Shown here: positions 42,001-48,000 of the stretch, one piece after another
How positions within the stretch are numbered: the first letter of the stretch is position 1
How the letters are laid out: each line of letters opens with the position of its first letter
DNA from: a candidate division WOR-3 bacterium
Lineage (GTDB): Bacteria > Hydrothermota > 32-111
Direction: 5' to 3'
Length of the DNA: 64,000 nt
NCBI GenBank assembly: GCA_039804105.1
Contig: JBDRZU010000001.1
Span: 992,001 to 1,056,000 of the forward strand
Made by a program: the position numbers

Positions 42001-45000
42001 GTAAGCAATATTTATAAGGTCTGTATCTCCTTCAAGAGTTATTTCATCAAAAATTCCTTTCAATTTAATATCTTTGAATTTTATTAATTTTGTATATGTA
42101 TATTTTTTAGAAGCATAGACATTTACTCCTTTACCGGTATATTTTTCACCAAAAAGAATCTCATATTTTTTTGCAAGATTATTATTCACTCTAATATTAA
42201 ACTCATCATCTATTTTCGTAAGATATTCAACTCTTCCATTTTCATAAAGTTTTGACACAACTATTGGTGAATTGCATATAAATTTATCTTTTCCTTTAAA
42301 TTTTGGGGTTCCTCTTATTTTTATTTCCTGTATTTTAAAATACTCATGTTTTATCTCTAAATAGCCCAATTCATAAAAACCTAAAGCGATTATTTCCAAT
42401 AATCTATTCAATGGAGATGATATAAACCATTTAAAACAACCATTTGACAGTTTCAAGTCAAGATCTTTCACTTTGAAAATATTACCTTTTAAAAATGAAT
42501 AGGTAAAAAGTTTGATATTTTTGTGTTCGTTTTCTTCATAAAAACCATCATCATGTATTTTTTTTGCAAGATCTTTATCGACAACATTTATTGATTTATA
42601 AATCGCAGAAGTCAGATAATAATTGTAGTTAAGTGGAATAGACCTTAACTGGTCATTACAACAAATAATTTCTATTCTCAAAATTTCCCCTCTTATATTA
42701 AGTTTATTAAATCGCTCAATTCCCTTATTTTTTCTATATTTTTTGCATTCAAAAATTTTATGTATCTACAGAAAGTTTGTTTAAAAAGTTTCAGTCCTTT
42801 TAAATTTTTTATTATATCTTCCATAACATCTTCATCTTTGTATTTGATATAATATGTTAACAATCCTCTTATTCCAAAAAGCAAATAATCTTCTTTTTCG
42901 AATTCTTTCATTTTTTTAAAAAAGTAATAATAAAGTTTTTTCGACATCTCTTGATCAGTTTCAAGAAATGAAAATGCATAATACTCAATTGCAAGATAAT
43001 ACATGTAATAGAATCTTGTGTCCTTAACTAATTCAAAGAAATCTTCCCACAAAAACTTCACTTCTTCTGATTTTCCAAGATGTGCATTCAATCTTATCTT
43101 CTCAAAATGGATAAAAACTTTCTGAATATTTTCAGGAGTTGCTTTTTTAAGATAATTTTCAGCAAGACCAATATATTTTTTAGAATTATTATAATTCCCT
43201 TTTAAAGTATTCAATTTTGCAAGATAACAGCAAACTCTTGATACATCAGAAGTAAGATACTTTTTACAAAACTCAAGATTATTTAAAAGATATTTTTCTG
43301 CTTTTTTAAAATCCTTATTGTGTATTAAGTATTGAGATAAAGTTCCATAGGTTGATATAGAAAGGTGTTTTCCTGTATATTTTTTTTCTTCCAAGTTCAA
43401 TTTCAAAAGTTTTAAGCCCTCTTTAAATCTGTAAATGTCTTTTAAAAATACTGCATAAACATTGTTAAATTCGATAGAAATATTATTATACTCAAATAAT
43501 TTTTCTTTTATAAGTTCATTTTTTGTATCATTTGCTCTTTTAAAATAATTTTCAGCAGTTAAAATATCTCCCGATTGATTATAATGTAATGCCAATCTTG
43601 ATAGAACAAGAAAGTAATAATTCTTTGACTTTATATCCTCTCTATTTTTAAGATATGCCTCAAGATTATTGTAAATTGGAAGATAGGAATTTTTATCACT
43701 CTTCAACAGATAATTTTCAGCAATATTGAACATTCTTTCAACACCAGAGAGAAATCTTTTATCGACTGTTTCAGTGTAATCTCCAAAGACATTTTTTATT
43801 ACTTCTTTAAAATTTTTCAATTTTTTATCAGGATAAACAAAGATTCCCTCTTTTATTTCCTTATCAAAACAATATTTTTTTTCTTCTATAAAATCAACTT
43901 CAAGCAGATTACCTTCAAAATCGAGTGCTCCAGTAAAACAAAATTTATCTTCCACATATCTATTCGTTACTGCCAAATATAAAAGCACTGCTATTGGAAG
44001 TTCGAGCGATTCACAATCAAGAGAAAAAATCTTTTCTATCTCATCAAAATTTTCAAGTATTATTTTGTTAGGATTCAAATCAATGATTATCTCTTTTTGG
44101 GCAAAATATTTTTCAACAACCACAACTGCTTTTCTTATAACATTTGCTATGTTTTCCTTATAAATGATTGTTTCATTTTCAGAAAAATTGACTTTTAACG
44201 GAATAAGAACCGGATACTTTTGATTTTTATCTATTATTACCACAGGAGCAAAAACATTATATTCCAAATGTGGATTTAAAATATCTACACTTTTACTCAA
44301 ATTTTTCAAAATTGTCTTCATATCATATGTTTTCACTTCATTTAAAAGTTTATCTATTATTAATTTTGAATGACTATAATTTTGAAATTTCAAAAGTAAA
44401 TTCAAATATTCAAATGACCTTAAATCTGATCTCAATCATCTCCCCACTTTTTAAAGATTTTACTTTGATAATATTTTCTTTTTCAAAAGATGGAGTCAAA
44501 ATAAGTTCTTTATCTTCTAATTTTTTATTATCTATTAAAAATTTACCTTTTATACTTTTACATATAATTTTTTTGTCTTCAAACTTCAGAAACAAAATAT
44601 TTCCATCATTAAACTTTATTTCTCTCATTTTTTGTAATTTTTCTATATTCTTTATAATTTCGTCTTTTTCTGGTTGTTTCTTTTTTGCTGCCAAAACAGG
44701 TTTTAAAAAATCAACAGGTATTTCCCAGACAAAAACCTTATCTTTTTTAAATTCTTCTATGTAAGTTTTCAAATGGATATATGGAGAAATAAATTTGAAT
44801 TCATCTTCTTTTATTATTTTAAAAACATCATTTAAAATTATATTCAAATTCAAATCTTTCAAATTTGTATCTTCAATATATTTTGAAAAAACGAACGCCT
44901 CTTTCGGCAAAGAAATTTGCACTGGCGCAAAATATATTTTTTGTTTTAATTTTAGGGAGTCATAACACAACTCAGTTTTTCCTTCATATTCTGGGATAAA

Positions 45001-48000
45001 TATAACCTCATTATCTAAAATTTCCTTTACAAAAACAAATTTTTCAGGAACTGATTTTAGAATTGGGTTATATAGTGAATAAACTTTTTGGGGTGAGATT
45101 TCAGGAGGACTCTTTCCAATTAAAAATTTTTCAAGCCAATCGTTTAAAGTTTTTAAATACAATTTTTCTTTCTTTTTATCAAATAAAATCTTTTCACCTG
45201 ACTTAAAAAGTATATATTTTTCAAAATCATTAAATTCAATCTGATTTTTCATAAACTCCTCAATCTTTCTTTCAATAAATATAAACTAAAAAATTTTCAA
45301 AAAACAAAAATTTTTATTTATTTTTGTAATTTTTTAAAATATTTTTTAAATCATCACAAGAGAGAGAATTTTTTACAACAAATTCTTCTATTTTTTTTTC
45401 AATCTTTTTTACATAAAACTGTATATTCTGTGGAGAAGTTTTTAATTCCTCTGCAATCTTTACAATTGTTATATCTTGTAAAAATTTAGATATAATACTT
45501 TTTTCATAATCGTTAAACAATGATTCAAATTTTTCATAATAAAAATTCCAATCCATTTCTTCTGTTTTTAATACAATTTCGTTTTCTCTTATACTACCAT
45601 TACCTTGTTCTTGTTCATCATCAATGATATTCACAACATCATTAAAAGCATATTTCAATTCATCCATTACTTTTTTTATCGATATTTTTCCATTTTCTCT
45701 GTATATCAAATAATCAAGATATTCTTGTAAATCTTTTGTTTTAAATAGTTGCTTGTTTCCTCTTAATTTTGGCTTTTGCGGAATTCTATTCTTTTCGAAA
45801 TTTCTAATCTTATTTTTATTGATCAAAATTTCTTGATCAAATTTAATATCTTTTTTAATTCCATAAAATTCTATTAAAATTTTCTTTATAGTAAAAAAAA
45901 GTTTTTTTTCTGGCTTTTTAGAAGTAATATCTTCGACATAATTTTCAAACATTCTGTTGATTAATTTTTTAAAACCTGTTTCATCAGAAAGATGACCTTT
46001 TTCAATTTTTCCCTTAAAGTAATTTAGATTGTTGTATATTTTTTTAGAAATAAAATTATATATCTCTGATTTAGCAAGATCTTCATTTTCTTTATTATAT
46101 ATTTCAAAAATGATGTAGTATTCGGGATTATGGTAAAACTTTTGTAAAAGATATTCTGTTAAAATTGTTATAAATTGTTCATTTAATTTTTTTTTCTGGG
46201 GGGTTTCTTTATTTTCAATTATTTTTTTTAATAATTCAAACATAAATATAAAAAATATAAAGTATTTTTTTACTATTGTCAATATATTTTATTTTTTCGA
46301 GAAAAACAATCAAGGTTTCCATACCAAAAATGGTGCGATTAAGACCGAGAACGATCCGTTCTCGTCGATTTATAGAATCTTAAAGTTTCCATACCAAAAA
46401 TGGTGCGATTAAGACAAAAAACAATGAAAATTAAAAAAATCATTTCACTTATGTTTCCATACCAAAAATGGTGCGATTAAGACATTTTGAACAACATCGA
46501 CGAAGTTATTTACATCAACCCGTTTCCATACCAAAAATGGTGCGATTAAGACCTAAGATAGGAAGATAGGAAGAGAACAAAAGGAGGCAAAATGTGTTTC
46601 CATACCAAAAATGGTGCGATTAAGACACAACCCCTCTGCTGAGGGCTTCATCACATCTTCTCGAAAGTTTCCATACCAAAAATGGTGCGATTAAGACATT
46701 GATGGATTTATTACTGATTTTTTATGGTCTGATGAAGTTTCCATACCAAAAATGGTGCGATTAAGACGGGGTGAGGAGTTTAGGTACTCCTCTGACTACG
46801 ATAAAGGATTTTGTTTCCATACCAAAAATGGTGCGATTAAGACATAAAATAAAATAAAATAAAAAAATAGGCACCACCGGGTGCGATTAAGACAGGATCA
46901 TAAATTTAATTTTATTATATACTTATTTTAAAATTTGTCAAGATTTTTCTGTCGATCGGTGGTCGTGCAAAAAACCCGGGGGATCGACAGAAAATTTTCG
47001 CTGTAATATTTACTTTGATATTATAATAAATATAATATCACATTATGATTTATACTTTTTTTGCTGCTTTTTTAATTGGAATTGCAGATGGTTGTTCAAA
47101 GTATGCTATAAGTAAATTGAAAACAGGAAGATTGATGTTCATTTCTGGAACAACTCAAATTTTACTAACCTTTATTTTCTTTAAAATCATGAATGGTAAA
47201 CTTCCTGAGGTATTAACAATTTTTAAACTCTCTTTTATTCAGATTCTTTCAACAATTGCATATCTTTCTTATGTTATAGCACTTTACTATGGAAATGTAT
47301 CAATTATAACCGCTATAATCTCTTCTTCATCAATTTTTACATTTTTACTTGGAACTCTTGTTTTAAAAGAAAAAATAAGTTTTTTTCAGTTTCTCGGAAT
47401 CATTCTGGTTATTGTAGGGAGTATTGGAATTTCGTATGAAAAAAAATCAAACACTCAAAATAACAAAAAAATTCTCTGGCTTACATTAACTGTAATCGCA
47501 ACTATACTCTGGGGAATCTGGGCATTTTTGATCAAAATAATGGTTTCTCATATTAAACCCTTTGAACTCTCTTTTTTTAATTCAACATTCTCTTTTGTTT
47601 TTCTTTTACCATATATGTTTTTTTCTATAAAAACAGAAAAAAATGTTCGAATCGATATTTTTTCAGTTTTTGTTTCAATTCTTTTTGCGGTATTCGTTTT
47701 CACAGGACTTGTTTCTTTTTATTATTCTGCTTCAAGAATACCTGTCTCAATAGCGTTTCCAATATTTTGTTCGTCTCCTCTTGTAACTGCAATATTTTCT
47801 GCAATATTTTTTAAAGAAAAATTACAACTACATCAATATTTTTCTCTGTTTATTATAATTTTTAGTTTATTTTTAATTAATCTGACTTGAATTGAATTAA
47901 GTAAAAATTTCTGATATAATCAACCAATGCAGATTTTTATATCTACATTCAGTTCAGTTCTTGGATTGCTTGTAATTGGACTATTAGGATTTTTTCTTGT

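Follow-up and report, generated by a model that had tools for sequence, protein, structure and literature searches.

What do the three unannotated genes between a CRISPR array and the cas6 gene of a type III-D operon do in this candidate division WOR-3 bacterium, and do they act downstream of the CRISPR effector, upstream of it, or merely beside it? The arrangement itself is real: on the minus strand of the window (the whole stretch of 64,000 nucleotides analysed), which also carries every gene, domain and promoter-like site placed below, a leader and CRISPR array are followed by g00940, g00939, g00938, cas6 and the type III-D operon. The array (array B, 46315-46893, minus strand) has eight perfect 31-nt repeats of GTCTTAATCGCACCATTTTTGGTATGGAAAC at 46315-46843, compared with 0 expected by chance, plus a truncated leader-proximal repeat that contains a terminator-like hairpin (46871-46884). 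Its repeat is identical to that of array A (39 repeats, 26223-29006), and the leaders beside the two arrays resemble each other. The initial annotation had reported an uncalled array by g00940, and this array is indeed present, but it was counted there as a third; the window contains only two, so that number refers to something outside it. A sigma-70-type promoter-like site in the array B leader (TTGACA-16-TATAAT, 46914-46941) agrees with the consensus at 12/12 positions, as a consensus match only, and another directly upstream of g00940 (TTGACA-17-TATATT, 46254-46282) does so at 11/12; the g00940 orthologue in a related locus, L001, is also preceded by TTGACA...TATTAT.

The boundaries of the genes describe a compact operon. 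Although the g00940 frame extends to a TTG at 46282 (45314-46282, 322 aa), this TTG belongs to the -35 hexamer of the promoter-like site, and the true start is therefore taken as the ATG at 46243, the position at which database orthologues begin; the resulting 309 aa (45314-46243) agree with the length first assigned. The next gene, g00939 (44410-45252, 280 aa), overlaps g00938 (42693-44435, 580 aa) by 26 nt, and cas6 (41941-42681; Pfam Cas_Cas6_C, E 3.7e-24) follows 11 nt downstream, and the genes from g00939 to those beyond cas6 are set apart by 26-nt and 4-nt overlaps or short gaps. The III-D interference and signalling genes (30934-41944) encode a Csm6-like CARF-HEPN protein, a beta-CASP/MBL-CARF protein, Cas10d with its GGDD motif, Cas7-Csx10, Cas7x2, Csx19 and a large Cas7 (TIGR03986).

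Sequence and modeling together identify g00938 as the fusion of a Lon-fold Ser-Lys protease domain, its dyad intact, to a TPR superhelix. The single sequence matches the archaeal Lon protease domain 1xhk at E 0.0079, and the Pfam values obtained earlier were reproduced (ChlI E 5.1e-4, residues 101-188; TPR_12 E 6.1e-4), both under cut-off, as is the protein's score for Lon_C. With a 10-sequence profile the matches to archaeal Lon protease domains reach E 1.9e-7 (1xhk) and 8.4e-6 (1z0w), and these alignments pair S143 and K186 with the catalytic Ser (DGDSA) and Lys (NEKIEAA), respectively. The domain (S16, residues 60-225) is encoded at 43761-44258, with the checked codons of S143 and K186 at 44007-44009 and 43878-43880. 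Both residues are invariant in 29/29 aligned sequences of 14-89% identity, whereas G175, initially listed with them, is only nearly so. A search of representatives with a 5-sequence profile (E<=1e-3) returned 64 matches against 63 before, and relatives over the Lon_C cut-off (21.1 bits) were again found: among 24 Lon-TPR-type matches scanned, 12 score above it and 4 below, and 8 have no listing. Canonical Lon proteins (P0042, P0075) are retrieved by the g00938 profile as well. The N-terminal half had been said not to fold, yet given the 29-sequence alignment AF2 models the whole protein (pLDDT 92, pTM 0.87). In VIA, residues 54-230 of this model superpose on yeast Lon (Z 15.5, rmsd 3.4, 167 residues), 1xhk (Z 14.0) and E. 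coli Lon 1rr9 (Z 13.9). The putative protease thus shares fold and Ser-Lys dyad with canonical Lon (LonA/LonB, MEROPS S16) but lacks the AAA+ ATPase module and the Lon N-domain, and its conserved dyad sets it apart from the Lon-like domains of RadA and ComM, which are inactive. Profile, dyad conservation and AF2/VIA comparisons together strengthen the Lon-plus-TPR anatomy first proposed.

The protease domain is preceded in the AF2 model by three helices (2-16, 20-33 and 37-53, within residues 1-58, 44262-44435) and followed by a superhelix of about 16 helices (residues 229-576, 42708-43751). The latter had been called IFIT-like, a label that we abandon: IFIT proteins are absent both from the top 50 structural matches and from the profile matches at E<=1. 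VIA instead aligns the superhelix with MalT domain III (Z 22.7), with phage Rap (Z 22.4), and with LGN (Z 22.1) and NprR (Z 20.6), and Foldseek finds matches to the TPR part at E 1e-5. Residues 224-566 superpose on the TPR sensor domains of MalT (domain III) and the RRNPP proteins (Rap, NprR, PlcR, AimR) with Z 20-23 at an identity of only 9-12%. The TPR domain of MalT and RRNPP proteins binds a regulatory ligand or peptide, and the superhelix of g00938 could likewise be a regulatory or recognition domain; TPR solenoids match one another generically, however, and so no ligand can be read from the likeness.

The first gene of the trio, g00940, appears to encode a divergent member of the sigma-70 family. 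The initial annotation recognized its C-terminal sigma-4-like HTH, to which the AF2 model (five sequences, pLDDT 72.5, medium confidence) adds a sigma-2-like domain; the predicted order is sigma-2-like (about 1-109), possibly sigma-3-like (about 150-200) and sigma-4 HTH (about 225-295). Sigma factors are the top structural matches, making up all of the top 10 in Foldseek (E 0.1-1.3), and VIA aligns the model with full-length SigL (Z 9.0), CnrH sigma-4 (Z 8.9, rmsd 2.2) and ShbA sigma-2 (Z 7.5, rmsd 2.8), within ranges (sigma-4 Z 8.4-8.9, rmsd ~2; sigma-2 Z 6.4-7.5, rmsd 2.5-2.8) that are mid-range for helical domains. Profile comparisons are weak yet agree with this assignment. Comparison with the genome's own 267-aa sigma factor by hhalign gives E 0.004. 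The profile match to TIGR02937 (E 0.0077) is under its curated cut-off, as are those of the L001 orthologue to TIGR02937 (E 6e-5) and FliA/WhiG (E 8.8e-5). In a further related locus, L031, the sigma-like gene has a frameshift within the HTH, a point against the reading proposed below. Searches of Pfam, NCBIfam, PADLOC and PDB match the middle gene, g00939, to nothing, its sequence is unlike those of anti-sigma factors, CalpT and Csx30, and its Atlas model is poor. Its orthologues always sit between the sigma-like and Lon-TPR genes, and in the phylum it occurs only together with Lon-TPR (G000, G001), besides a weak partial match in G010 (E 3.9e-4, internal stops). The substrate role assigned to g00939 in the initial annotation did not gain from these searches, nor did an anti-sigma role; we propose it as a candidate inhibitor or substrate from its gene position, which is the sole basis for doing so. 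Of the protease-substrate-transcription-factor module envisaged there, the anatomy and operon setting are supported, and the substrate role, the presumed coupling of the protease to target recognition and the IFIT likeness are not.

Taken together, these features suggest an output module of type III immunity in which a protease, an inhibitor and a sigma factor act in series, a reading by analogy with CalpL/T/S and Craspase/Csx30/CASP-sigma that we hold tentatively, at a little under an even chance. A protein inhibitor, for which g00939 is the most likely candidate, would keep the divergent sigma factor g00940 inactive, possibly with help from the three N-terminal helices of g00938. Infection would switch on g00938 as an ATPase-less Lon-type Ser143-Lys186 endopeptidase, the inhibitor would be cut, and the freed sigma factor would redirect RNA polymerase to a defence regulon, perhaps including the cas operon itself. 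PMC11229360 describes such a sequence for CalpL, CalpT and CalpS, a SAVED-Lon protease, an anti-sigma factor plus a sigma factor of the ECF-like kind, in which the protease cleaves the inhibitor and releases the sigma factor. Like these, the trio belongs to a type III locus and joins a predicted ATPase-less Lon-fold Ser-Lys protease to two neighbours, one a small partner, the other of the sigma-70 family. Unlike CalpL, g00938 has no SAVED domain and carries a ~350-residue TPR superhelix after the protease, and activation by cA4 is not to be assumed; g00940, at 309 aa, is longer than CalpS and has a ~115-residue middle segment, and so looks more like a group 3 than an ECF factor. No chain named CalpL, CalpT or CalpS appears among the profile matches of g00938 (57 at E<=1), g00939 or g00940. 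As first reported, none of the three proteins contains CARF, SAVED or another known nucleotide-sensing domain, which weighs against this reading. As the trigger one may consider a nucleotide signal that Cas10 makes, or a ligand that arises from infection and binds to the TPR domain. We found no description of the trio in the literature searched, and among protease-to-transcription signalling modules with a link to CRISPR immunity it is probably the third, assembled independently of the others.

The same parts could be wired in the opposite direction. The trio may act upstream of CRISPR, with the TPR domain sensing infection or stress and proteolysis freeing the sigma factor, which would then turn on expression of the arrays and the cas operon; we consider this unlikely, if the most probable of the alternatives. 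It would then be a cytoplasmic counterpart of Myxococcus xanthus DdvA/DdvS rather than an output of target-RNA recognition. According to PMC11506125, DdvA is a transmembrane anti-sigma factor with an N-terminal three-helix anti-sigma domain, a TPR-protease (TPR-CHAT) region and an incomplete CHAT site that, with the ECF sigma factor DdvS, controls a CBASS/type III-B island and acts upstream of CRISPR expression. The three N-terminal helices, TPR and protease fold of g00938, and the sigma factor and type III locus that accompany them, recall this design, and DdvA (8rot_A) is among its Foldseek matches (E 5.7e-4), probably via the TPR; in contrast to DdvA, the g00938 model has no predicted membrane segment, and its protease is a Lon domain with the dyad kept. 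The trio's place between array and cas6, at the cas operon's 5' end, and the absence of a cOA sensor domain are also consistent with an upstream regulator, and the trio's own sigma-70-like promoter fits it equally well. However, the cas genes appear co-transcribed from strong sigma-70-like promoters, so that a special sigma factor is not obviously needed, no candidate alternative promoter was found within the locus, where intergenic space is almost nil, and the CRISPR-embedded Calp and Craspase trios are outputs rather than inputs (PMC11229360, PMC10028731).

Comparison with related loci bears on which trigger to expect. The order array, sigma-like gene, 279-280 aa, 580-581 aa, cas6 is common to the window, L001/L029 and L031, and consecutive locus tags give the same order in a WOR-3 MAG. 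The effector module that follows is III-D in the window and L031 and III-A in L001 and L029, even though the trio of L031 is 87% identical in nucleotides to that of L001/L029. The trio thus travels with cas6 in type III operons, as claimed at the outset, and persists through III-D/III-A exchange; an upstream regulator would tolerate this exchange too. The window cas6 is 61-62% identical to the cas6 after the trio in L001 and L031, and divergence of the trio parallels that of the III-D genes (Lon-TPR 47.5%, Cas10d 58%, Cas7-Csx10 51%). Because one trio and cas6 precede either effector, we anticipate a trigger shared among type III systems rather than effector-specific docking, and both kinds of locus keep Cas10 with GGDD and CARF effectors.

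The exchange also weighs against a mechanism like that of Craspase, in which the TPR domain would dock g00938 on the crRNA-guided complex and target RNA would activate Lon allosterically, with no second messenger; we judge this very unlikely. Craspase (Cas7-11/gRAMP, TPR-CHAT Csx29, Csx30 and CASP-sigma, of type III-E) resembles the trio in that its type III locus, too, combines a TPR-protease fusion with a sigma factor and a further partner, and nucleotide sensor domains are missing from the trio. The large III-D Cas7 matches the C-terminal part of a gRAMP model (E 3.6e-48), and III-E is thought to descend from III-D2 (PMC12669027); Csx30 is an inhibitor of CASP-sigma that the protease cuts (PMC10028731). 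The g00938 protease, however, is a predicted Lon (Ser-Lys) rather than a CHAT caspase (His-Cys) and precedes the TPR, the effectors are multi-subunit with Cas10 rather than a single gRAMP protein, and the trio, being interchangeable between subtypes, serves III-A Csm and III-D complexes without orthologous large subunits. Judged by Craspase structures, Cas10 takes up the Csx29 binding position, which we count against such docking.

An unrelated transcription-regulatory cassette that neighbours CRISPR only by inheritance in this genus is somewhat more probable, though still improbable. Full-length g00938 copies occur in 2/271 genomes of the phylum, both of one genus, plus near-identical metagenome contigs; the window and L001 also share the synteny of the flanking MazG and transporter genes, and the wider Lon-TPR family (e.g. 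Caldithrix) has no demonstrated CRISPR link. The linkage to CRISPR given initially holds within one genus: it is documented only in close kin, beyond which the family extends to five core relatives of greater distance and 19 Lon-TPR proteins of the wider set, and conserved synteny could therefore be inheritance. Against a chance neighbourhood, the trio sits between array and cas6 in a tightly packed, co-oriented operon with overlapping frames; it outlived an exchange of the entire effector module and, in L031, an insertion that splits the upstream array; and its content of protease, small partner and sigma factor matches two experimentally proven CRISPR modules.

Least likely of all, the activated Lon-TPR protein might degrade host or phage proteins broadly in abortive infection, with g00940 and g00939 accessory or antitoxin-like. 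The conserved dyad would suit such an effector, and SAVED-CHAT-type proteases act in type III defence via proteolytic cascades (PMC11229360), but the co-conservation of a sigma-like protein suggests that the output is transcriptional and specific, and both loci already have nuclease effectors (Csm6-like and beta-CASP-CARF). The genome's own Lon-like frame, of about 783 aa, is located elsewhere (G000:C1:794215-794688).

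The product of g00938 (42693-44435 on the minus strand, 580 aa) is predicted from sequence profiles and structural modeling to be a Lon-type Ser-Lys protease domain fused to a TPR superhelix. The single sequence gives sub-threshold matches to ChlI (E 5.1e-4, 20.4 bits against a 27-bit cut-off), to a LonB model (E 0.034) and to the PDB entry 1xhk (E 0.0079), and no Lon_C row at E<=0.01 in Pfam (cut-off 21.1 bits); the Pfam and PDB values of the initial annotation were reproduced. A word-based search retrieved five close relatives; their profile, run with HMMER against the full set of 1.84 billion representatives, returned 64 matches at E<=1e-3, six of them full-length core representatives at E<1e-100. 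The profile of a 10-sequence core alignment (31-89% identity) matches the M. jannaschii Lon protease domain 1xhk at E 1.9e-7 and the 1z0w-family archaeal Lon homologue, the Archaeoglobus fulgidus protein, at E 8.4e-6 in PDB. In the profile alignment with 1xhk and 1z0w, S143 aligns with the Ser of DGDSA and K186 with the Lys of NEKIEAA, the catalytic pair of Lon. The invariance of S143, G175 and K186 claimed in the initial annotation holds for all three residues in the core alignment, and S143 and K186 are also invariant in 29/29 rows of a larger alignment, as is partly expected since the rows were chosen for aligning over the protease region. This larger alignment combines the 10 core sequences with 19 further matches covering the protease region, leaving out 35 listed matches to the TPR part only and the canonical Lon proteins P0042 and P0075. 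Twelve of 24 scanned Lon-TPR-type proteins exceed the Lon_C cut-off of 21.1 bits (the core relatives P0017 at 22.5 and P0019 at 27.5, and 10 wider relatives), four lie just below it and eight have no row; the wider family is an uncharacterised group of ATP-independent Lon-type proteases. Protein Atlas features for residues 1-235 score at most 0.86 and serve as a lead only, with Lon_C clusters at ranks 5 and 12.

AlphaFold2 supplied with the 29-row alignment models the whole of g00938 with a mean pLDDT of 92, a pTM of 0.87 and no segment below 50. The N-terminal half had earlier been reported not to fold, a failure that reflects too shallow an alignment, since it folds once 29 sequences are supplied. 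From the N terminus, the model has three helices (residues 2-53), then an alpha/beta domain (60-225), then about 16 helices of TPR type (229-576). In structure comparison with VIA, residues 54-230 superpose on yeast Lon 7sxo with Z 15.5 and an rmsd of 3.4 over 167 residues, followed by the RadA Lon-like domain (Z 15.1), B. subtilis LonBA (Z 14.2), 1xhk (Z 14.0) and E. coli Lon 1rr9 (Z 13.9, model residues 60-222 against 597-775). Canonical LonA and LonB carry an AAA+ module N-terminal to the protease, whereas g00938 has no AAA match in Pfam or NCBIfam and only about 58 helical residues precede its protease domain; neither SAVED or CARF domains nor a CHAT domain were matched in Pfam, NCBIfam or PADLOC. 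Structural matches to the TPR part include MalT domain III (Z 22.7), phage Rap (22.4) and LGN (22.1), as well as NprR, RapH, AimR and PlcR. The initial description of this array as IFIT-like gives way to a MalT/RRNPP-like one, with the caveat that TPR solenoids match one another generically; no IFIT protein appears among the 57 profile rows at E<=1 or the 50 structural rows listed.

The second component, g00940 (45314-46243, minus strand, 309 aa), is probably a divergent sigma-70-family factor, an assignment that draws on profile hints and on sigma-2- and sigma-4-like domains in the right order. The sequence matches GerE (E 0.007) and TIGR02937 (E 0.0077, 15.9 bits) below cut-off, and its orthologue in L001, the related TA06 genome (equal to G001), matches TIGR02937 at E 6e-5 (22.7 bits) and the FliA/WhiG model NF009091 at E 8.8e-5 (22.3 bits), values for both proteins that are far below the curated cut-offs of 42.9 bits for TIGR02937 and 339 bits for NF009091. 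Pfam Sigma70_r4_2 appears in one of five orthologues with a best E of 0.19, and a five-orthologue profile has no match among PDB sequences at E<=10. With hhalign, residues 116-295 align colinearly with residues 55-263 of a 267-aa sigma factor from the same genome (pairwise E 0.004, probability only 8%), and the two small ECF-like sigmas gave nothing useful. The AF2 model built from five sequences has a pLDDT of 72.5. Its best ten Foldseek matches are all sigma factors (SigB, sigma-28, sigma-S, sigma-70 and SigH), weak at E 0.1-1.3, and VIA aligns it with full-length SigL at Z 9.0. Residues 1-109 may be sigma-2-like (ShbA Z 7.5, rmsd 2.8; SigC Z 6.6; SigE Z 6.4; SigI6 Z 6.4) and residues ~225-295 resemble sigma-4 (CnrH Z 8.9, rmsd 2.2; SigD4 Z 8.4, rmsd 1.9; SigW Z 8.4, rmsd 2.0), Z values in a range that VIA flags as common for helical models, and LuxR/GerE domains fit residues ~225-295 as well as sigma-4 domains do. 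The partner protein g00939 (44410-45252, minus strand, 280 aa) has no match in NCBIfam or PADLOC, and in Pfam at E<=5 matches only PSV_trans_reg_dom (best E 0.0048, below cut-off). Its profile finds only a weak SMI1/KNR4 row in PDB (E 0.13), the protein Atlas gives nothing scoring at least 0.9 and a poor model of the protein itself, and a complex prediction of g00940 with g00939, each entered as an alignment, scored 0.03, which is evidence neither way.

These three genes belong to a single co-oriented block on the minus strand of the window from 47000 to 29400. A leader with a sigma-70-like promoter match (46941-46914, minus strand, 12/12 consensus positions) precedes CRISPR array B (46315-46843, minus strand; eight perfect 31-nt repeats and a truncated leader-proximal copy), and a second promoter-like site (46282-46254, minus strand, 11/12 consensus match) lies upstream of g00940. 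The leader-proximal unit of array B (46871-46893, minus strand) is a truncated repeat located between the promoter-like site of the leader and the first complete repeat, and its altered 3′ half forms a terminator-like hairpin with a T run behind it. The mechanical g00940 reading frame (322 aa) begins at a TTG coinciding with the −35 hexamer of the second promoter-like site; database orthologues start at the ATG at 46243, in agreement with the initial annotation, which has the coordinates and sizes of all three genes right. g00939 and g00938 overlap by 26 nt, the end of g00938 and cas6 are 11 nt apart, and the gene after cas6 shares 4 nt with it. Downstream of g00938 the order is cas6, a Csm6-like CARF-HEPN gene, a beta-CASP/MBL-CARF fusion, then Cas10d, Cas7-Csx10, a double Cas7, Csx19, a large Cas7 (TIGR03986), cas4, cas1 and array A with its 39 perfect repeats. 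Type III-D signature genes are present (PADLOC Cas10d E 7.6e-114, Cas5_IIId E 4.8e-157), Csx19 scores 44.2 bits against the 35-bit NCBIfam cut-off, and the effector is encoded as separate Cas10d, Cas7-Csx10, Cas7x2, Csx19 and large Cas7 proteins. No RNA dataset is listed among 15 public runs that contain part of the window.

Among 271 genomes of the phylum, full-length copies matching the core profile occur only in this genome and in G001, both of one genus. Core-profile matches in 23 other genomes fall either at positions ~85-240 in 768-793-aa frames, consistent with housekeeping Lon, or in the TPR part. g00939 has relatives in the same two genomes, plus a weak partial match with internal stops in G010 (E 3.9e-4). 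A 581-aa reading frame near the cas6 match in G002 is unrelated (BLASTP E 0.41); that locus looks like type I and was set aside for the comparison. Named relatives come from a 'candidate division WOR-3' MAG, in which the three genes have consecutive locus tags, and from the 'TA06 bacterium 32_111' MAG. The search of genome contigs returned L001 only and that of metagenomes only a clade at 47-48%, the 31-39% identical core relatives P0016-P0020 come from short contigs, and distant relatives were found neither in viral contigs (searched with A2) nor on plasmids (tblastn with P0001 and P0034). The 19 wider Lon-TPR proteins include the Caldithrix WP_457566607.1 cluster. Limited breadth is the main weakness of the initially proposed CRISPR linkage, which is seen in a single genus and its relatives from metagenomes only.

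Comparison of these loci reveals a constant unit beside an exchangeable one. L001 has the same chromosomal neighbours and CRISPR repeat as the window, with the order array, 330-aa sigma-like gene, 279-aa gene, 581-aa Lon-TPR gene and cas6, followed by a type III-A set (Csm1 with HD and GGDD, Csm2-5), a Csm6-like gene, a DUF3800 protein, cas4 and cas1. Identity between L001 and the metagenome contig L029 is about 89% over the trio and the III-A genes. The contig L031 matches L001, at 87% nucleotide identity, solely over the stretch that runs from the sigma-like gene through cas6, and beyond cas6 it carries a III-D set in the same gene order as the window. In these two strains, L001:12455-18279 (III-A csm1-5) and L031:12476-21660 (III-D) give a clean case of one effector module being swapped for another downstream of cas6; with III-A in L001 and L029 and III-D in L031 behind the shared block, the trio and cas6 form the constant unit and the effector module is exchanged. 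The window and L031 are colinear over the whole locus, with amino-acid identities of 27% for the sigma-like protein, 36% for g00939, 47.5% for Lon-TPR, 62% for cas6, 31% for the Csm6-like protein, 56% for beta-CASP-CARF, 58% for Cas10d, 51% for Cas7-Csx10, 58% for Cas7x2 and 53% for Csx19, which indicates that the trio diverged together with the CRISPR locus. The L031 sigma-like gene has a frameshift inside the HTH (around 9000-9020) that may be an assembly error or decay. On the same contig a two-gene insertion (4972-7580; a 445-aa methyltransferase-like and a 420-aa protein) splits the upstream CRISPR array, and a two-repeat array remnant (7818-7922) lies beside the sigma-like gene.

We tentatively propose that g00938, as an ATP-independent Lon-fold protease, would cut an inhibitor and thereby release the sigma-family protein, because the gene content parallels two proven systems. 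CalpL (SAVED-Lon) cuts CalpT, an anti-sigma factor, to free CalpS (PMC11229360), and Csx29 (TPR-CHAT) bound to Cas7-11 cleaves Csx30, an inhibitor of CASP-sigma (PMC10028731). The analysis shows the Lon fold and dyad of g00938, the sigma-like fold of g00940 and the organisation of the operon; the substrate, the release of a sigma factor and the trigger are inferred. As in CalpL/T/S, a sigma-70-family-like protein neighbours a Lon-type protease at a type III locus; however, CalpL has a cA4-binding SAVED domain, whereas the C-terminal 350 residues of g00938 form a TPR solenoid. The CHAT domain of Csx29 has a His-Cys site, in contrast to the Lon fold of the g00938 protease domain, and Craspase relies on a single-protein gRAMP/Cas7-11 without Cas10, unlike the multi-gene effector with Cas10d in the window. 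PDB searches with the three trio proteins matched no CalpL/T/S or Csx29/30 chain by sequence. Full-text literature searches returned CARF- and SAVED-Lon and TPR-CHAT proteases and no CRISPR-linked Lon-TPR protease, and none is described in the consulted portions of Shah 2018, Shmakov 2018 (preprint), Hoikkala 2024 or Makarova 2025, whose supplements lie outside this scope and may list one. With SAVED-Lon Calp and TPR-CHAT Craspase as the two known type III protease/anti-sigma/sigma modules, the trio would be a third, pairing a Lon protease and TPR domain with a non-ECF-looking sigma factor, and would support the repeated origin of coupling infection sensing to transcription through regulated proteolysis.

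The occurrence of the trio beside both III-A and III-D effectors, with no recognisable nucleotide sensor, raises the question of how type III activity or infection triggers the protease. The exchange of effector modules speaks against docking to a single particular complex and favours a signal common to type III systems; Cas10 keeps GGDD in both the III-D and the III-A loci, and CARF effectors are present in both. Alternatively, an infection-derived ligand might be read by the TPR domain. In the main competing explanation, which we consider rather unlikely, the trio acts upstream and turns on CRISPR expression, following the precedent of DdvA/DdvS, where DdvA joins an N-terminal three-helix anti-sigma domain to a TPR-CHAT domain (PMC11506125). 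The three N-terminal helices modeled in g00938 make a single-chain anti-sigma/protease/sensor conceivable. A bolder version, to which we give little credence, would have g00938 be a new programmable CRISPR protease, a cytoplasmic single chain of anti-sigma factor, Lon protease and TPR sensor. The sigma factor would be bound by its N-terminal helices while the TPR domain reads type III activation without CARF or SAVED, through a novel mode of nucleotide sensing or through docking to complexes that contain crRNA or Cas6 and are shared by III-A and III-D. Recognition of target RNA would in that case lead directly to release of the sigma factor, with g00939 as an adaptor or second substrate. Should the trigger of the proposed proteolytic release prove to be RNA-guided, g00938 would extend the toolkit for RNA-activated proteolysis by a serine-protease scaffold.

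Several other features in and near the III-D locus were recorded. A perfect 34-nt direct repeat (41867-41900 and 41936-41969, 69 nt apart), possibly a local duplication, covers the end of cas6 and the beginning of the Csm6-like gene, with the ribosome-binding site and GTG start codon of the latter. The beta-CASP/MBL nuclease fused to an APE2256-type CARF domain (791 aa; 38097-40472, minus strand; L031:13891-16272, 56% conserved) is presumably a cOA-regulated beta-CASP nuclease effector, and its nuclease part matches aCPSF1 (E 8.6e-64) and the type VII Cas14 model (E 1.5e-57), neither of them reaching the cut-off. The large Cas7 (30934-32700, minus strand) scores 259.6 bits with TIGR03986, above cut-off, and also matches the C-terminal third of the gRAMP (III-E) model (E 3.6e-48, positions 1253-1603 of 1636), in keeping with the proposal that III-E arose from III-D-like loci. 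cas4 (30424-30915) precedes cas1 (29429-30454), and no cas2-sized reading frame of at least 80 aa lies between cas1 and array A (29007-29428); cas2 may be short, absent or elsewhere. Downstream of array A are a second APE2256 CARF protein (24921-26090) and several reading frames without family match (18414-24247). The minus-strand stretch 13229-26090 also encodes, farther on, a PP2C phosphatase, a 617-aa ClpB-like AAA+ protein, an FHA protein and a 763-aa Ser/Thr kinase resembling defence-associated kinases (MAD6 model, E 4.4e-29), and may represent a further defence or signalling cluster.
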